Assembly (NCBI RefSeq): GCF_006345805.1
Contig: NC_042997.1
Location: 185,132,001-185,196,000, forward strand
Length of the DNA stretch: 64,000 nt
DNA from: Octopus sinensis
Taxonomy: Eukaryota
Direction of reading: 5' to 3'
Part shown: positions 6,560 to 62,920 of the stretch, in pieces
Layout of the letters: each line of letters starts with the position of its first letter
Numbering within the stretch: the first letter of the stretch is position 1
Program-made: the position numbers and the translations under genes
Notes under the pieces: model-generated
The model's database searches: none
Told to the model about the DNA's origin: nothing
What the model saw: only the letters and a program-made list of their open reading frames with translations

Positions 6560-7625
6560 CAAAGAGGCAAACCTTTTGTAACAGTCCTACTGGGCAGTCT
6601 ATTCCAAAATTCCTTTACATTCCTCTTGATGGCTTCTGATACTGTTCTAAAGGACCCAACAGTAATTGGTACTGTCTTCACCTTCTTCATTTTCTATAGC
6701 CGGGCTATTTCGTAAAAAGTCCCAGAGGATTTTTGCCCTCTCATTTTCGTCCATTATCTTTTCCTGTGTATGTTTGTAACAAGCAACCTTTACCTCATAT
6801 CCATACTTCCGGCATAGTAGCCAGTTAAGGCTTGGGCTACCTTGTCGTGTCTGCGCGTGTATTCTTTTGGCACAAGACTTTCGGAAGCACTAACAATGTG
6901 AGTCAAGCTTTTGACCCTCTTCCCACATATTTTGCAGAGTTGTATTTATCTATCTTTTCGCCATCCATCTTGACTATTCGTGGGTCAAAGGGGGAATGCA
7001 ACATCGACTATATAGTATATGTGGTGCACCTTGTCGACCACCACTAGCTCCGCTCTGTTATGCACTAGCACCTGATCTGTTTGGATTGAAAAAATCCTAG
7101 AGGATTTTGCTAATCTCTGACTCCGCCCCTCTCTGCAGCTTGTGTTCATATCACGTCCTCCCTCTCTCGGGCTCCCACTTTTCGCACAGTTTCCAATGTA
7201 GCACTTTCGCCACCTTGTCGTATCGCCACAAATTGTAATGGTTTGGGGCAAGTGTAGAGTATTCGTTCCTGATACGAGCAAGGATTTCATCCACCCTGTT
7301 GCAGATGTGGCACAGCGGAGACCCTTGCTCATTCCTAAGGTTGACCCACCAGTTCGTTGCCAAAGCTTGGTCCTGCGTTGCCAATATAGTGCTATACTCT
7401 TTTACTCTTTTTACATTTTTCAGTCATTTGACTATGGCCATACCGGAGCACCGCCTTTAGTCGAGAAAATCGCCCCCAGTATTTATTTTCTGTGAGCCTA
7501 GTACTTATTCTATCATTCTCTTTTGCCGAACTGCTAAGTTACGGGGACGTAAACACAGCAGCATCGGTTGTCAAGTTATGTTGGGGGACAAACAAAGACA
7601 CACAAACACACACACACACACACGC

Positions 7626-7718
<93 letters not shown>

Positions 7719-8280
7719 TACGACGAGCTTCTTTCAGTTTCCGTCTACCAAATCCATTCACAAGGCTTTGGTCGGCCCGAGGTTATAGTAGAAGGCACTT
7801 GCCCAAGGTGCAACGCAGTGGGACTGAACCCGGAACCATGTGGTTCATAAGCAAGCTACTTACCACACAGCCACTCCTACGCCGACGGTCTCCTTTTTTA
7901 GGATGCCTTTCATCAGCCAATCCTACCTATTTTTTCCATCAATTTCTGTTGTGGCTACATGGAATTAATTGTGTCGTCCCTTGTTGCGTAATTCTTCTTC
8001 ATGTGCTTTTTTGCACTTCTTCCTTTGTTTCCCTGTTTTGTCTGCCCTCAATACTCCCGCTAACTGTCACTAGCAAAGTTCCCTTATTTTGGGCTAGGTA
8101 TCTCATTAAGCCTTTGAATTCAATACGCACGCAGTCTTGCACATTTATCCGTCCCTTTCCTCCATTTGATCTCTTCATGTATAGGCGATCAGTGTCTGCA
8201 CGTGGATGATGGGCTCCATGCATCGGTAGGAGCTTTCTTGACTTATTATTATTAATGTCATTTACTTTTAATCTGCATGT
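6560..8280 (-). mobile_element. Decayed R4/Dong-like (restriction-like endonuclease) non-LTR retrotransposon 3' region, interrupted by a SINE
   Basis: HHPRADTDRLYMKRSNGGKG, QDQAL, CHIC..., DKVAKVLHWKLCEKW, IQTDQV, VDVAFP motifs; adjacent to (ATT)n tracts. Confidence 0.75.
7395..7883 (-). mobile_element. Major bipartite tRNA-SINE (family A; internal (TA)n/(TG)n, gagtaaaa tail)
   Basis: Head ggagtggctgtgtggtaag...gggttcagtcccac; tail gcagtcaaatgactgaaacaagtaaaagag; more than 12 related copies in the window. Confidence 0.9.
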
Positions 8281-12448: not shown

Positions 12449-13572
12449 CTGTTCAGGAAATAATTAAAGCAGAGATGTGAGTATAAGGTGAATGCATGGT
12501 GAAAATATTACGACAGCCTATATCGATATGTTTAATATCCACACAACGTAACACTCAGTGACCTTTTATTTTATTCAAAAGAAGACTCTGGGTAGAATAT
12601 ACTCTTAAAAGAGAAGAAAAAGAAAGAAAATGCATTTCGAAATTATGTTAAAAGTCATTCAAGTAAGTAGAAATGAGTAAGTGGAGAAAAATTAACTTGA
12701 CAGTTAAGATATTTCTACAAAACCATGTAATTAGTTATAACTGATAGAATGCTAATTTAATAGTGGTCTTCTGGAAGGCTGCCTTCAATATTCAATTATG
12801 ATGCAACATTTTCAATAATATTTTTGAGAATGGTACGTAAATATCAACGCCTCCAGTCATTGCTATTATAAACTTTTCCTCATTTGTCAGTATTAGAAAT
12901 CTATGAGACAGTACTTTGATTAGTGATTATTGCAAGAAACCAAATTCTTCATATGTAATATTCGCATATATTTATTTAATAAGTATTGTCTTTAAAATTT
13001 AAAATCAGAAACTAAGTATGTACATGTGGTTATGTACCAGAACGTCCAACACAACTCTAGATGAGGGTAAATGAGAAGAACAAGTGATTGCGCTTGTCAG
13101 TAATAGCTTTCTTGAATTGATCAGTTATTTGTCGAAACTAAAATAGTTACTGAAAGCATCCTTAGCGTAATTTGGAATTAACGTAAAGTTAAAACACTAC
13201 TCTTTTACTTGTTTCTGTCATTTGACTGCGGCCATGCTCGAGCACTGCCTTTAGTCGAGCAGATCGACCCCAGGACTTATTCTTTGTAAGTCTAGCACTT
13301 ATTCTATCGGATTGTTTTGTCGAACCGCTATATTACGGGGGCGTAAACACAGCAGCATCGGTTCTGAAGCGATGTTGGGGGAACAAACACAGGCACACAA
13401 ACACACACATATATATACATATACATATATACGACAGGCTTCTTTCCGTTTCCGTCTACCAAATCCTTTCACAAGACTTTGGTCGGCCCGAGGCTATAGT
13501 AGAGGACACTTGCCCAATGTGTCACACAATGGGACTGAAGCTGGAACCATGTGGTTCGTAAGCAAGCTACTT

Positions 13573-15618
13573 TATTTCATTAAATTTGTCATGAAGACTG
13601 TACAAAGACTGTGTAGCTGTGCGGGCTGGACAAACACATTAATGAATGAAAATGAAATAGAATGAATAAATGAGAGACGAAACCCAACACCCTCCGGTTG
13701 GATTTTTCTCGAAAACATATTTTCTTGTTTTTTTAAAAATCAATATGAGGTTTCAAACCTCTTACAAGAAGGAGGCACTAAAACCTCTTACTTGACATGT
13801 TTTTTTTAAACACACAATTGAGGTTATAAACCACTACAAATAATACAATAAGATGAGGCTTCAAACCCTATAACGAGGGTCTTTCACCTCCTACTCTTCG
13901 ATATATCTTTCGATATATTCATCATTATCTTCAATGCCGCTTGAGTTCCTGTATGCTGCCATTTCCCATGCCTCACTCATGTAGGACATGTAAGTCGTGT
14001 AAGAGCCACCCGGCCATATGCGACACTCCTCCCCAAATCCTTTAAGCCTTTCCCACAAGGGGAATCTTAGGACCTCCACAGCTATCTGCGGAGGCCATTT
14101 GGGATCCCGTGTGAAGGGCATATCTACTGTCTCTTTATGTTCTTCTACTATTTTTTCCACCTCCCCGCCCTTATAGAAAAAGATAATTAATTGATCATCT
14201 TTAAGGGTGGGGGTGGTTTATTCCACCGTGGGTGGCACAACTTCGGGACATGCAGACGGCACATCATCTCCCGGCTGAGATGACCCATTCTTCTTCCTTC
14301 TTTTTTTCCTTTTCTTCCTGATTTCGGGAGAGTGGAGCTCTTCCGCTTTGTCTGGATACTCTCCCCGCCTCCCGAAGCCTTAGGTTCCTTCGGCGGGCAA
14401 CTATTGTTGCCCGCCTTCTTCCTTTTTAATCCTTTTTGAGTTGAGGAGGCTGAAGCCTCCTCGACCACATCCACCACTCCCCTTGACCGGGTAGGGGAGG
14501 TGGCATCTAGTGACTGTTCCAGGACCTTACCATTGTCCGGGGGGCAGTTCCTTTTAATGTGGTCTGGCTGCAAGCACGAGTGACACTTGGGGGGACGTCC
14601 CTCAAGTATCACTTGATACCTGCAGCTAGCCATTTTCAAGAAATCTGGAAAAACCAGATCTGTTGCGGTCGATAGAGTCCACAGGGTCAAAATCGCTTTT
14701 GATCCTTCCCAATCGACCGCCGGCAATACCCTTACATTTAAGAGCCTGGGCCCGCCATCCCCCAGTCCCCGTCAGATGGTATCTTCAATCCAATCCGCTT
14801 CGGTGCCTGTGGGTAACCCACATACCCAGGCTCGTATTAATTTTCTTCCAGAATATAACGGAAGGAACAGAATTTCCTTGCCTTATAAAGGCTGACTCGC
14901 AAACTGGCGAGCATTTTCCCCGTTGTCAAACAGCAACCATACGGTTGCATGTTTGACACCAGGAGATATATATTTTAAAAAGGACAAATATTCTTTAAGT
15001 TCATTTTTTGACTTGTTTTGGGAAGACGGTGATGGAATTAAGAACTTTAGAATAAGTTCTAAGTACCATCGTCTTCTCCTCCATATCTTTTAACCACTGC
15101 TTAGGCGGGTTAATTTCCCACTCTAAGACAGAATTTTTCTTTTTAAGTTCCTTCTCTGCCATGTCAAAAAACAGTTCAAAAGTTGTTCAAAAGACAGTCT
15201 GCCAAAAAATTAAACCGAATAGAAATAAAACAAAATAAAAGAGAAGGTGAGGAAACTGAAATTAAAGTAATGAAAAGAATGAACCAAAAAGAAAGAAAAA
15301 ATAGAAGGGAAAAGTAAAAGAAAAATCTCACAAATGGCACAGACAAGGAATCCTTTGTATAATACTCCAAAAAGGTAATCCAAATGGCTTATTCTTATTT
15401 TTCTGGCGAGATACGCCCACTAGAATTTACAAAAAGAATTTTGAAGCGAAAATTCTCAATTCACCGTTACAGTGATGAGAACCCAGTATTTTGCTCGCTA
15501 AAGCGAGCCATAATTGACAATTTTTCTTTTTGTTTTTTTTTCTATTTACGGAGCCGAAACTCACATCTTCCACTGTAACAGTCCAGACCAACTAGTGTTG
15601 TATTCGGGTTAACCGGAA
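13573..15618 (-). mobile_element. Non-autonomous ORF1/Gag-only retroelement (HAL1-like) with 15-bp TSD
   Basis: TSD gtaagcaagctactt (13558-13572, 15619-15633); terminal AATAAA; single CCHC knuckle; no RT or endonuclease motif seen. Confidence 0.75.
13891..15162 (-). pseudogene. Gag-like ORF1 with CCHC zinc knuckle (disrupted by stops and frameshifts)
   Basis: MAEKELKKKNSVLEW...; EGRPPKCHSCLQPDHIKRNCP; segments lie in different frames. Confidence 0.75.
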
Positions 15619-15833
15619 GTAAGCAAGCTACTTACCACACAGCCACTCCTCCGCCTATAGTTTAACGATATGTTTAACTACTAGTTTAACATATGACATT
15701 TTACTACGAATAAATCGTTATACTCAATATTTTGTGGCATGACAGAAATATTCAATTGCAATTATAGAAAAAAAGCAACTTTTCGAACATTTAGAAATGC
15801 TAATATCGCGTGGAGTTGTCACGATTTCATTAC

Positions 15834-22676: not shown

Positions 22677-23069
22677 GTTGGAGTGGCTGTGTCTTCTGTG
22701 GCCGACCAAACCCTTGTGAGTAGATTTGGTAGATGGAAACTGAAAGAAGCCTACCGAATATATAAATATTTATATGTATGTATTTGCGTGTCTGTGTTTC
22801 TCCCCCAGCATCGCTTGACATCCGATGTCGGTGTGTTTACGACCCCGTAACTTTAGGGTTCGGCAAAACAGACCGACAGAATAAGTACTAGGCTACAATT
22901 GATTAAGGCGGTGCTCAAGCATGGCTGCAGTCAAATGACAGAAACTAATAAAAGAAATAAAAGAATGCATCTATGCATTTCCAAAAATGAGTTTACGGGG
23001 TTATATAATCGTGACGGTTGCCGTGCTTCGTCTTCGATTTCACGTGTCGGCCCACCCACAACAGTTCTT

Positions 23070-23483
23070 TAGTGACATCCGAGTTAACAATAAGTTACAA
23101 GACCTTGGTTGTTATCCTCGCTTAGTAAATCCGAGTATCCTTTTCTTGACTACATAGTTACTGTAGAGCAAGTAATAGTATTAATAATGACAAAGAGAAA
23201 AAGATTTTCCACATCTATAAACAGTTATTTGTAGCATTCTTTTCTAGACCTCCGTGCGTTTCAATTGCAATCGACGCAGATGAAAGGTGTGTAGGCCCAG
23301 AAAAGAATGCTGTTAGTGGCTATTTAATAAAATTATAGATGTGGAAAATCTCTTTCTCTTTATCATTATTTAAACTGTTACTTGCTCTACAGAGACTATG
23401 TAATCCAGAAAGGACACTCGGATTTGCCAAGCGAGAATAATAACCAGAGTTTAGCAATTTATTGTTAACTCATGTATCACTAA
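23070..23483. repeat. Diverged long inverted repeat / old MITE (~170-bp arms)
   Basis: tagtgacatccgagttaacaataag...agattttccacatctataa pairs with ttatagatgtggaaaatct...ttattgttaactcatgtatcacta. Confidence 0.85.
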
Positions 23484-23530
23484 CGGGCTGTGATTTGAAA
23501 AAAACTCCGTGCTTCCTATCATTATTGATA

Positions 23531-23569
<39 letters not shown>

Positions 23570-23574
<5 letters not shown>

Positions 23575-23780
23575 TACTCTTTTAATTGTTTCAGTCATTT
23601 TGACTGCGGCCATGCGGGAGCACCGCCTTTAGTCGAGCAAATCGACCCCAGGACTTATTCTTTGTAAGCCTAGTACTTATTCTATCGGTCTCTTTTGCCG
23701 AACGGCTAAGTTACGGGGACGTAAACACACCAGCATCGGTTGTCAAGCGATGTTGGGGGGACAAACACAGACACACAAAC

Positions 23781-23825
<45 letters not shown>

Positions 23826-23998
23826 CATATATACAACGGGCTTCATTCAGTTTCCGTCTACCAAATCCACTCAGAAGACTTCGGTCGGCCCGAGGCTATA
23901 GTAGAAGACACTTGCCCAAGGTGCTACGCAGTGGGACTGAACCCGGAACCATCTGGTTGGTAAGCAAGCTATTTACCACACACCCACTCCTACGCCTA
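23570..23998 (-). mobile_element. SINE family A
   Basis: Full-length match to family A. Confidence 0.9.
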
Positions 23999-24044
23999 TA
24001 TATATATATATAATATATATATGTGTGTATGTATGTGTGTGTGT

Positions 24045-31152: not shown

Positions 31153-31366
31153 ACTCTTTTACTCTTTTACTTGTTTCAGTCATTTGACTGTGGCCATGCT
31201 GGAGCACCGCCTTTAGTCAAGCAAATTGACCCCAGGACTTATTCTTTGTAATCATAGTACATATTCTAACGGCCTCTTTTGCTGAACCGCTACGTTACGG
31301 GGACGTAAACACACCAGCATCGGTTATCAAGCGATGGGGATGGGGGACAAACACAGACACACACAC

Positions 31367-31402
<36 letters not shown>

Positions 31403-31466
31403 CGACGGGCTTCTTTCAGTTTCCGTCTACCAAATCCACTCAGAAGTCTTTGGTCGGCCCGAGGCT
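31153..31466 (-). mobile_element. SINE family A (5'-truncated)
   Basis: Family A body and tail. Confidence 0.85.
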
Positions 31467-32992: not shown

Positions 32993-33402
32993 AGTGGCTG
33001 TGTGGTAAGTAGCTTGCTAACCAACCACATGGTTCCGGGTTCAGTCCCACTGCGTGGCATCTTGGGCAAGTGTCTTCTGCTATAGCCGCGGGCCGACCAA
33101 AGCCTTGTGAGTGGATTTGGTAGAGGGAAACTGAAAGAAGCCCGTCGTATATATGTATACATATATATATAAGTGTGTATGTGTTCGTGTGTCTGTGTTT
33201 GTCCCCCTAGCATTGCTTGACAACCGATGCTGGTGTGTTTACGTCCCCGTCACTTAGCGGTTCGGCAAAAGAGACCGATAGAATAAGTACTGGGCTTACA
33301 AAGAATAAGTCCCAGGGTCGATTTGCTCGACTAAAGGCGGTGCTCCAGCATGGCCGCAGCCAAATGACTGAAACAAGTAAAAGAGTAAAAGAGTAAAAGA
33401 GT
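32993..33402 (+). mobile_element. SINE family A
   Basis: Near full-length copy with gagtaaaa tail. Confidence 0.9.
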
Positions 33403-35931: not shown

Positions 35932-36339
35932 ATACTCTTTACTCTTTTACTTGTTTCAGTCATTTGACTGCGGCCATGCTGGAGCACCACCTTTAATCGA
36001 GCAACTCGACACCGGGACTTATTCTTTTGTAAGCCCAGTACTTATTCTATCGGTCAATTTTGCCGAACCGCTAAGTAACGGGGACATAAACACGCCAGCA
36101 TCGGTTGTCAAGCAATGCTAGGGGGACAAACACAGACACACAAACACACACACGCATATATATATACATATATACGACGGGTTTCTTTCAGTTTCCGTCT
36201 ACCAAATCCACTCACAAGGCTTTGGACGGCCCGAGGCTATAGTAGAAGACACTTGCCCAAGGTGCCACGCAGTGGGAATGAACCCAGAACCATGTGGTTG
36301 GTAAACAAGCTACTTACCACACAGCCACTCCTGCGCCTA
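35932..36339 (-). mobile_element. SINE family A
   Basis: Full-length match. Confidence 0.9.
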
Positions 36340-36724
36340 TGTATGTATGTAGATGTATGTATGTATGTAGATGCAAAGAAGTACCGGATCTTAATAACTT
36401 TTATTAAATATGATATGATATGAAAATTATACATGCTTATAAACGTTTGGTGTGACTTTTCTTTTGTTTGAGACCAAATAAACTCAGATCTATAAATTAG
36501 ATAATGACTATAGACTGAAATACAATCATAACTCTCCACAAAGAAGGCGAAAGTAATACAGCTGTAGCAAAAGAAGCTTAAAATTAACTGGACAGCAGTT
36601 TGGAGAAATTTCAAGAAATTTTAAGGGACTGATTCCATCACTTATCGATCTGAGGGTGACTGAAAAAGAAATGTGCGGACCGCTTAGCTTCTCAAAAGTA
36701 CCAGATAAAAGATACGGCAAAATC

Positions 36725-47059: not shown

Positions 47060-47275
47060 CCCTTTACTCTCTTTTACTTGTTTTAGTCATTTGACTGTTG
47101 CGATGCTAGAGCACCGCCTTTTAGTCGAGCAAATTGACCGCAGGACTTATTCTTTGTAAGCCTAGTACTTATTCTATCGGCCTCTTTTGCCGAACCGCTA
47201 AGTTACGGGAACTATACACATCAGCATCGGTCGTCAAGCGATGTTGGGGGGACAAACACAGAGACAAACATACAC

Positions 47276-47330
<55 letters not shown>

Positions 47331-47483
47331 CATATATACGACAGGCTTCTTTCAGTTTCTGTCTACCAAATCCACTCACAAGGCTTTGGTCGGCCCGAGG
47401 CTATAACAGAAGACACTTGCCCAAGGTGCCGCGCAGTGGGACTGAACCCAGAACCATGTGGTTGGTAAGCAAGCTACTTACCA
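47060..47483 (-). mobile_element. SINE family A
   Basis: Family match. Confidence 0.9.
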
Positions 47484-50304: not shown

Positions 50305-50715
50305 TACTCTTTACTCTTTTACTTGTTTCAGTCATTTGACTGCGGCCATGCTGGAGCACCGCGTTTAGTCGAACAAATCGACCCCGGGACTTATTCTTTG
50401 TAAGCCCAGTACTTATACTATTGGTCTCTTTTGCCGAACCGCTAAGTGACGGGGACGTAAACACACCAGCATCGGTTGTCAAGCAATGCTAGGGGGACAA
50501 ACACAGACACACAAACATACACACACACATATATATATACATACATATACACGACGAGCTTCTTTCAGTTTCCGTCTACCAAATCCACTCACAAGGCTTT
50601 GGTCGGCCCGAGGCTATAGTAGAAGACACTTGCCCAAGATGCCACGCAGTGGGACTGAACCGGAAACCATGTGGTTGGTAAGCAAGCTATTTACCACACA
50701 GCCACTCCTACGCCA
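50305..50715 (-). mobile_element. SINE family A
   Basis: Full-length match. Confidence 0.9.
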
Positions 50716-53900: not shown

Positions 53901-53927
53901 ATTAATATATATATACATATATATAAT

Positions 53928-54275
53928 AGGCGCAGGAGTGGCTGTATGGTAAATAGCTTACTTACCAACAACATGGTACTGGGTTCAGTCCCACTGTGTG
54001 GCACCTTGGGCAAGCGTCTTCTATTATAGCCTCGGGCCGACCAAAGCCTTGTGAGTGGATTTGGTGGACGGAAACTGAAAGAAGGCCGTCGTATATATGT
54101 ATATATGTATGTGTGTGTATATGTTTGTGCGTCTGTGTTTGTCTCACCCCCCCCCCAAACATCGCTTGACAACCGATGGCTGTGTGTTTACTTTCCCGTA
54201 ACTTAGCGGTTCGGCAAGAAAGGCCGATAAAATAAGTACTAGGCTTACAAAGAATAATTCTTGGGGTCGATTTGC
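53928..54275 (+). mobile_element. SINE family A (3'-truncated)
   Basis: Family match. Confidence 0.85.
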
Positions 54276-60718: not shown

Positions 60719-62462
60719 ATGGTTTATATGTATATGTATATATGTGTGTGTGTGGTTGTGTGTCTATGTTTGTCCCCCCAACATCGCTTGAAAACTGATG
60801 CTGGTGTGTTTACATCCCCATAACTTAGCGGTTCGGCAGAAGAGTCCGATAGAATAAGTACTAGGCTTGCAAAGAATAAGTCCTGGAGTCGATTTGCTCG
60901 ACTGAAGGCGGTGCTCCAGCATGGCCGCAGTCAAATGCTTGTAATAATTAAAAGAGTAAAAGAGTATCATATTTTGAGAACTCTGTAATTAGTGATGATT
61001 GCATGAACGTATTTCTTAGAGTCGTAGAATATTTTCTACCAGGATATTTATCTGATATTTCACTTCACTGTTATATCTAGATTATGCTAATAGAAGAGAG
61101 CATTGCCGTAAGTGTAACTGTTGAAGGCAAACTTAGACCTCTGTAACCTAAAGTAGCGTTTAGTGTTAATGCCTTCTTTTGTAGGGGTAAATATTCATGT
61201 TCTCATATATTTATTTGTTCTAACCCTTCTTTTCTATCAAAATATTTCTCTCAAACTAGTAAACTACATATATATTAGTCCTATTATTCTACAGTGGCCA
61301 ACAATAGCCGTGTGCTTGCTTGATTTGGGGCTAATCTATATGGAACGGCAGTGTATAGGAAAAAGACTCCTTAGAAGACTCAATATCTTCCCATTAACAC
61401 CATTAGCATGAATAAGGCTTCAGCATGTCTAAAAAGTGTGCAAAGGCTTCATAAAGTTTCTCAGAGAGTTTCAGCTGTATGACAGGCATTATATGGACTT
61501 TTTTAATGCGTTACATCTTCAAATATAGTTTGAGCCATTGATCCAAGTTTTACATAGAATATTTTCTCGGTTACTGGATATGGACAGTGGATATAGACAT
61601 TTTTTGGATAGTGTGTTACTCAGAGTACATATGATTATTTTAACTTAAACTTATAGATATGGTTTTTGTTATTGGAAGCTGAAGGCTTCATTTCCTCTCC
61701 GAAATAAAACCTGTAGAAATTCGTATTTATGAGCAATTAAGAAGTGATTTAAATGAAGCTATCATAATTAACAAATAGCTGGTTGATTAAAATTAACTTT
61801 TTAGAGAAGTGATGTTGAGTAAATTAATTGTTTTCCAAACTATTTTGGATACATATGATTATCTTAGCTGTCTCTATCATTTTAACTTTAAAAGAATAAT
61901 AGGTGTGAAAGACAGTTAAAAACATGAAGAATGATAACAGTCATATTGCATTTTTTAATGCGGCCTATGATCTTTGTGTGCAGCAGAAGCCTCACTGCAC
62001 AGTCTAAATAATGAAGACTTACTCCAATTTAGATCTCACTTGAGATCAGGAGAGAGTCAGTAATAAATCAAAGCTGAAACATTTTCTGGTTTTCAAAAAG
62101 TAATACAAATGCAGTTTTAGTGATGCTATGTACTTAAAGTAGCAAAGGAAGATCATAAAAGATCATAGGATCAAACATTTGTGTGCTTCGGCTTTCAATG
62201 TCCAAGAATAGAGAAGGCGAGATATGATAATATTTCTTTCATATGTGAGATAATTGCCATGTAACTTTTCATGGTTTATTCAAAGTCTCTGTCCATAGAT
62301 ATAGTGAAAACATCACGTAAACAGTCTACTTTGTATGTGAATGATATCAGTCTGCGGATATTGACCCATATCTGGCCCAAATATTCTACCAGTTTTACGT
62401 TAAAACTAATCAGATAGAACCTCTCCGACTTATCTTACAACATCATGCTAAAACATAAAAAC

Positions 62463-62663
62463 AGGCACAGGAGTGGCTGTGTGATAAGTAGCTTGCTTAC
62501 CAACCACATGGTTCCGGGTTCATTCCCACTGCGTGGCACCTTCGGCAAGTGTCTTCTACTATAGCCTCGGGCCGACCAAAGCCTTGTGAGTGGATTTGGT
62601 CGACAAAAACTGAAAGAAGCCCGTCGTATATATATATATATATATATTTATGTGTGTGTGTGT

Positions 62664-62702
<39 letters not shown>

Positions 62703-62920
62703 ATGTTTGTGTGTCTGTGTTTGTCCCCCCAACATCGCTTGACAACCGATGGTGGTGTGTTTACGTCCCCGTAACTTAGCAGTTCGGCAAAAGAGACCGA
62801 TAGAATATGTACTAGGCTTACAAAGAATAAGTCCTGGGGTCGATTTGCTTGACTAAAGGCGGTGCTCCTTCATGGCCGCAGTCAAATGACTGAAATAAAT
62901 AAAAGAGTAAAAGAGAGTAA
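62463..62920 (+). mobile_element. SINE family A
   Basis: Full-length match; a partial copy also lies at 60725-60966. Confidence 0.9.

Follow-up and report, generated by a model that had tools for sequence, protein, structure and literature searches.

A decayed ORF1-only retroelement at a fixed base of a SINE head in Octopus sinensis and its likely autonomous LINE partner

The window, a stretch of 64,000 nt from contig NC_042997.1 of Octopus sinensis, contains a retroelement that is best read as a decayed member of an ORF1-only family, lodged at a fixed base in the head of a tRNA-like SINE and likely copied by the endonuclease and reverse transcriptase (RT) of a co-located autonomous LINE of L1/Tx1 type. 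To this reading as a whole we give a probability of about 85%.

Layout and copies of the window element

The features of the element and of its host SINE are as follows (positions are those of the window).

13573..15618, minus strand: full-length copy of the ORF1-only retroelement, 2046 nt between 15-bp repeats
15619..15633, minus strand: 5'-side copy of the 15-bp target repeat, exact direct repeat
13558..13572, minus strand: 3'-side copy of the 15-bp target repeat, exact direct repeat
15163..15618, minus strand: 5' UTR of 456 nt, with a presumed internal promoter
13891..15162, minus strand: ORF1, ~424 codons, ATG at 15162, stop ending at 13891
13573..13890, minus strand: 3' UTR of 318 nt, without poly(A) tail
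13571..13576, minus strand: AATAAA, 2 nt of it within the target repeat
14595..15105, minus strand: two predicted RRM domains, limits approximate and transferred from copy L012
14541..14588, minus strand: single zinc knuckle CX2CX4HX4C (motif; Pfam zf-CCHC)
13894..14205, minus strand: C-terminal domain of ~90 aa with a WPPQ motif, common to the main ORF1-only clade
13613..13618, minus strand: AGCTAC motif of the tail, complement of a stretch of the target repeat
13587..13599, minus strand: 4-bp tail hairpin, also in the autonomous LINE; one pair broken in the window copy
15634..15656, minus strand: host SINE, 5' part of the tRNA-like head, A-box-like motif at 15635-15645
13201..13557, minus strand: host SINE, remainder, with a B-box-like motif at ~13531-13541, body, microsatellite and tail

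Most of this layout had been anticipated in the original prediction, made from the letters alone. The 5' UTR, put there at ~450 nt, measures 456 nt, the additional C-terminal segment corresponds to the ~90-aa domain, and the single disrupted ORF does carry the CX2CX4HX4C motif together with two frameshifts (near 15005 and, in an A-run, near 14310) and three in-frame stops (near 14895, 14772 and 14219). The knuckle of the window element is matched by Pfam zf-CCHC at E=0.0038, below the curated cut-off. RT, endonuclease and LTR had been described as missing, in agreement with the finding of no ORF2 similarity across the whole window and of no long terminal repeat at the element. Two descriptions needed amendment: the 3' UTR and its terminal AATAAA are both present, but the hexamer runs 2 nt into the repeat and a poly(A) tail is absent; and the clean 15-bp target-site duplication (TSD) within a SINE is indeed an exact repeat at both ends, but it marks a fixed target and not a chance landing. 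Since the partner LINE itself often encodes the distal half of its 5'-side repeat, some insertions may have a genuine duplication of less than 15 bp.

Removal of the insert in silico restores a SINE of ~390 nt, with 78-86% identity to uninterrupted copies elsewhere in the window. Its A-box-like motif is assigned by likeness to the Pol III consensus. At least ten more copies or parts of the host SINE lie in the window, all of them free of the insert (7409-7883, 22700-24000, 31163-31466, 32993-33384, 35943-36340, 47070-47483, 50315-50714, 53926-54275, 60722-60955 and 62463-62906).

Elsewhere in the genome, 24 other copies span both ends at ~2.0-2.1 kb and 88-93% identity (own-genome search, best 40 of 2244 candidates; genome searches in general scored the best 40-150 candidates), and the inserts of 30 fetched copies of the window family measure 2004-2086 nt. 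Same-length copies across the genome thus bear out the suggestion of a multicopy family as opposed to a one-off. That these copies would also have intact ORFs held in part: none of the 30 window-family copies examined has a complete ORF1, frames of 300-396 aa being common, and the family is therefore no longer young, while unbroken frames were found only in sister-family copies of the same architecture (430 aa in L269 and 415 aa in L270). Sixty sister-family loci were chosen by protein, with the C-terminal domains of two such families as queries (five of these loci had also come up in the junction search), and no ORF2 was found within 1.5 kb downstream of ORF1 in any of them; 48 end at the SINE site within 700 nt (either of two patterns), one ends there farther away and 11 have no junction match. 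Together with the equal lengths, these loci speak against the contrary scenario of the original prediction, that the other copies carry ORF2. The family thus shares with HAL1-like elements a constant length in many copies, with ORF1 and without ORF2.

A search that covered 1153 candidates gave a single protein relative of the window ORF1, a gene model of Octopus sinensis at 62% identity. This ORF1 is annotated in Octopus sinensis as an uncharacterised host gene, XP_029652367, which is most likely a transposon copy and not a host gene. Nested copies such as those described here get merged with the SINE, which matters for repeat annotation.

A fixed site and independent insertion

In 28 of 30 window-family copies, picked by the element body alone, the 3' end lies at one identical base of the tRNA-like SINE head. 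The two exceptions are L007, which is followed by the repeat and then by the tail of another element, and L025, whose 3' end lies outside the captured sequence. The A-box-like part of the SINE is also found upstream of the insert in 23 of the 30 copies. Genome-wide counts of exact junctions are 688 on the 3' side (control, 0) and, for the window family, 43 on the 5' side; exact empty sites number 36,998 and 28,031 for the two main SINE variants. The window family is hence sequence-specific for the SINE head, a property that had been missed at first reading.

As in tRNA-derived SINEs generally, the head resembles a tRNA gene: among 15 distinct genes, from 30 sampled tRNA loci, tRNA-Thr(TGT) aligned best (score 50 versus a shuffled maximum of 32.5), and the head itself was not called by ARAGORN or Rfam. 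The host SINE may resemble octopus OR2 / CORE-SINE. OR2 is named in PMC4758252. The resemblance to tRNA genes would suit a variant explanation in which an ORF1-only, site-specific family truly targets a tRNA gene, the SINE being matched by likeness, or in which its donor is another LINE; this is very improbable, given that the target 15-mer is absent from the 15 sampled tRNA sequences and that the tail shares its final ~35 nt with the LINE co-located at the SINE site.

Copies of the window family were inserted independently of one another. Flanks and orientation are identical in all copies, as they would also be after a single insertion into a SINE followed by joint amplification of SINE and insert by the LINE partner of the SINE. 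Such a composite history is largely refuted and keeps next to no weight, since the flanking SINE (84.8% alike) is more diverged than the element bodies (93.8%) and does not follow their genealogy (Mantel r=0.03, p=0.26, 28 copies), both element subfamilies are found in both SINE variants, both the 5'-truncated inserts, 41-900 nt long, and the tandem stacks terminate at the one fixed base, and ~18 diverged clusters as well as the autonomous LINE occupy the site. Truncated inserts with a SINE head of their own include L104, with 898 nt of the window family, and L040, L042 and L044. Private variants present in both flanking repeats were observed four times versus 1.13 by permutation (p=0.009), as anticipated for copies with distinct TSDs.

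Different family members are stacked in tandem at one site in L005, L007, L078, L079, L097, L120 and L145. Inverted arrangements also exist (5' flank of L028, L056, L068), with SINE or tail sequence reversed at the 5' junction; among these cases are two elements back to back, ~5.5 kb apart.

The ORF1 protein and its history

From its N terminus, ORF1 consists of two predicted RRMs, one knuckle, a basic low-complexity linker and the ~90-aa C-terminal domain. The N-terminal 220 aa were modelled by AlphaFold2 as two RRM folds (mean pLDDT 74.8); the model gave 55 Foldseek matches at E<=0.001, those among the matches listed being RRM proteins, and VIA Z scores of up to 8.8. The knuckle was modelled with low confidence and is matched by Pfam zf-CCHC in 12 of 31 aligned ORF1 pieces. 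Structure prediction thus retains the knuckle of the Gag-like protein originally proposed, but replaces the Gag likeness with a predicted tandem-RRM and CCHC fold. A retroviral or LTR-element Gag was rejected, since the model shows two beta-rich RRM folds at residues 25-191, where a Gag would have a helical capsid domain before the knuckle, and LTRs are absent. The same applies to a strict HAL1 assignment, with a type II ORF1 made of a coiled coil, one RRM and a CTD: two RRMs and a knuckle are modelled, and none of the 31 ORF1 members matches Transposase_22. Comparison with a fish ZCCHC3-type ORF1 profile gave a weak match (probability 4%, E=0.01), and ZCCHC3-RBD-like clusters with scores of 0.90 and 0.88 are a lead only.

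The C-terminal domain (model pLDDT 74) is shared with ORF1-only families outside the window family, at 18-52% identity to the window copy. It was not detected in six autonomous loci, in 30 partner 3' ends or in L132, a member of a second ORF1-only type described below. No Foldseek match was obtained at E<=0.001, the best VIA Z being 4.8 and Atlas scores reaching at most 0.82; these blank searches do not prove a new fold. The sole match among 1.84 billion proteins, an ankyrin-repeat protein, was discarded as spurious, being the sum of 18 weak pieces.

ORF1 was under purifying selection while the window family spread. In its cluster of 40 copies, changes found in at least three copies have a dN/dS of 0.18 (28 non-synonymous, 47 synonymous), versus 0.91 for private changes (251 and 83; p=1e-9), so that the comparison of dN/dS among copies that had been proposed as a check separates the two classes clearly. 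For the C-terminal domain the corresponding values, 0.29 versus 0.77, are suggestive (p=0.058), with a similar trend in the linker (p=0.075). Across the whole selection set of 64 copies in 18 clusters, the between-cluster median dN/dS is again 0.18 (1163 pairs, dS above 1), 47 saturated pairs having been dropped and the column similarity filter biasing this value somewhat downwards.

In a 19-row tree with midpoint root, the 13 rows of the main ORF1-only type form one clade (100/100) apart from the four autonomous rows, at 1.07 changes per column from the node uniting these four and two rows of the second type. The window family is part of an ORF1-only clade that is old, comprises ~18 clusters and stands well apart from the ORF1 of the partner LINE. 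As in HAL1-like elements, its ORF1 is homologous to that of an autonomous LINE: the window element and the partner are 20-31% identical, with local tblastn identities of 27-37% over 50-130 aa, and at just 20-31% identity the direct ancestor was not found.

These data bear on a competing explanation, in which the ORF1-only elements are recent internal deletions of an autonomous LINE, passively amplified, with ORF1 as non-functional baggage. The best-candidate searches may indeed miss a closer autonomous parent, and the ORF1 of the second ORF1-only type does lie nearer to that of the partner. However, the contrast between shared and private changes, the low between-cluster ratio at dS above 1, the separate clade of the 13 main-type rows and the lack of ORF2 downstream in all 60 sister-family loci make it improbable that deletion and passive amplification account for the family, and a long-lived ORF1-only clade with a selected ORF1 is preferred. 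The second type, ~1.45 kb long, occupies the same site (L132, G000:C2:122447011-122453629, and the upstream parts of L079 and L097); its ORF1 is nearer to the autonomous LINE and the C-terminal domain is absent. ORF2 has therefore apparently been lost at least twice.

The likely partner LINE, the shared tail and comparable systems

An autonomous LINE is co-located at the site. Its representative L061 is 5.46 kb long, with a CCHC ORF1 and Pfam matches to APE, RT and zf-RVT; the closest solved structure to its ORF2 is human L1 ORF2p (E=1e-33, versus 1e-17 for R2), and a named ORF2 relative is from Argonauta (60%). All 30 partner loci chosen by the last 673 nt end at the same SINE base. Among 38 further loci a recognisable tail is present in 37, the copies are 97-99% alike, and one of them, L234, has open frames of 467 aa and 1130 aa. 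An ORF2 with an N-terminal APE and an L1-type RT places this LINE in the L1 group, where it is a candidate Tx1 type by target preference and ORF1. The target preference, with more than 20% of flanks in one repeat according to the criterion of PMC4494074, is seen in 30/30 partner and 28/30 ORF1-only copies, and the partner has an ORF1 of the RRM/zf-CCHC kind, which PMC5203782 describes as compatible with Tx1; the name Tx1 is absent among the 240 homologue matches listed and among the homologue clusters of the partner. Of the 688 junction loci, 90 of the first 100 listed comprise 56 of the main ORF1-only type, 11 with ORF2 and 23 without ORF match, figures that give no copy-number ratio, since the junction pattern favours one SINE variant, and from which an excess of passengers over partner is not inferable. 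At 97-99%, the partner subfamily is younger than the window family, which points to some older relative as the actual donor. Roughly 22 kb before the window lies L163 (G000:C1:185107778-185111450), a young copy of the autonomous LINE that is 5'-truncated and has a SINE head and a duplication of its own.

A LINE sharing the 3' tail, whose existence had been put forward as a check, was thus found: the last ~35 nt, including the 4-bp hairpin, are common to passengers and partner. The hairpin is 92.6% paired in 47 sequences, with 14 double changes versus 2.8 after shuffling (0 of 500), a test inflated by the choice of the helix by eye and by the relatedness of the sequences; such compensatory changes favour a shared tail hairpin as support, not proof. 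In stringent LINEs, 3' hairpins of this kind are the ORF2p-binding signal (PMC4176376). From the shared site and tail, we infer that the ORF1-only family borrows its RT in trans. Its transcript would start in its own 5' UTR at a putative promoter and be bound by ORF1p, with its two predicted RRMs, knuckle, basic linker and C-terminal domain, and the common 3' hairpin would be recognised by the partner ORF2p. The partner endonuclease would nick the bottom strand at 5'-CTACTT/AC-3', a putative L1-like TT/A junction, and prime reverse transcription; a second nick would produce a duplication of 9-16 bp and restore the target site, so that more elements could stack there. The SINE, whose exact empty sites number at least 65,000, would offer a large, low-cost landing pad.

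Some features of the tail and of the 5' end might hint at assistance by RNA in targeting. AGCTAC is present in 57 of 87 tails versus 0.8 expected by shuffling, at ~-80 in the partner LINE and ~-45 in passengers, although shared descent reduces these 57 tails to few independent events. In the young partner copies L233, L241, L243, L246 and L257, the distal half of the 5'-side repeat agrees with the element sequence instead of with the 3'-side repeat, while L236 has a genuine 16-bp duplication. Furthermore, the partner lies in the SINE variant carried at its own 5' end in 20 of 25 informative loci versus 43% expected (p=0.0003), and the window family lies in the variant matching the partner 5' end in 2 of 18; an age difference between SINE subfamilies could be a partial cause of this preference. 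A bolder proposal, which we regard as doubtful, is that the ORF1-only clade acts as a hyperparasite, a newly gained C-terminal domain capturing the ORF2p or RNP of the partner and so beating cis-preference, and the RNA contributing to the choice of site, its tail motif pairing with the displaced target strand and its 5' end carrying a copy of the preferred target variant. If true, RNA would assist the targeting of an APE retrotransposon system that resides inside a SINE.

Several known systems offer parallels. HAL1 (half-L1) of mammals is a non-autonomous LINE derivative that encodes only ORF1p and arose more than once (PMC5753468), much like the two ORF1-only types of octopus. The mammalian L1 ORF1 from which HAL1 derives is of the coiled-coil/RRM/CTD type (PMC5203782), whereas the octopus ORF1 is predicted to be RRM-RRM-CCHC with an extra domain, and the octopus element lacks a poly(A) tail and is sequence-specific. 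Target-specific LINEs of the Tx1 clade (Tx1 in Tx1D, Keno, Kibi/Koshi, and Tx1-Mar with its SINEU passengers; PMC4494074, PMC4640811) are likewise APE-type L1-group elements that occupy one particular site of a multicopy sequence, other transposons included, with passengers that share the target. The targets named in the portions available of these two sources are DNA transposons, LTR elements, snRNA, 5S, satellites and microsatellites, with no SINE among them, whereas the octopus target is a SINE; moreover, SINEU passengers are non-coding while those of octopus keep a selected ORF1.

HeT-A and other telomeric ORF1-only elements of Drosophila have a zinc knuckle and are proposed to use the RT of a co-located element (PMC1636488, PMC13534243). 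Like the octopus elements, they are ORF1-only with a knuckle, site-restricted and arranged in head-to-tail arrays, and ORF1-only lineages beget ORF1-only families. They differ in belonging to the Jockey clade, in residing at chromosome ends, in benefiting the host and in the three knuckles of the TART ORF1, as opposed to an L1-group system with one knuckle at an internal SINE site, presumably cut by an endonuclease. In the stringent LINEs ZfL2 and UnaL2, a short 3' stem-loop with compensatory changes is common to the autonomous element and its passengers (PMC4176376, PMC3747384), as in octopus; binding was assayed there, whereas covariation is what suggests tail recognition in octopus. In the literature covered, no SINE-targeting LINE or ORF1-only family was found described in cephalopods, and repeat databases and supplements beyond this scope may contain such families; the available part of PMC13282606 lists L1-Tx1 families without target analysis.

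The octopus system brings together three known habits: a SINE that acts as a sequence-specific landing pad, ORF1-only elements that encode a protein and have radiated over a long time, and an autonomous partner that is still young. Through it, the idea drawn from Drosophila telomeres that ORF2 is lost repeatedly only where elements share a specialised site (PMC13534243) can be tested independently. It also raises the testable question of why selection maintains a separate ORF1 in a passenger. The partner, whose frames are near-intact and whose target is strict, is a natural system for the study of APE-type site specificity.

Two observations concern the 5' ends. The first ~28 nt are alike in autonomous and ORF1-only families (96% over 28 nt; L124 versus L071 and L081, and L132 versus the window element), which suggests that 5' ends may be exchanged between co-targeted elements. 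Many 5' ends also begin with GCGCATGCG-like or ACTTCCGG-like words (L066, L073, L094, L096, L113, L065 and the window at 15612-15621, where the second motif, ACTTCCGG-like, is completed by the target repeat), and these words may resemble NRF1 and ETS promoter motifs.
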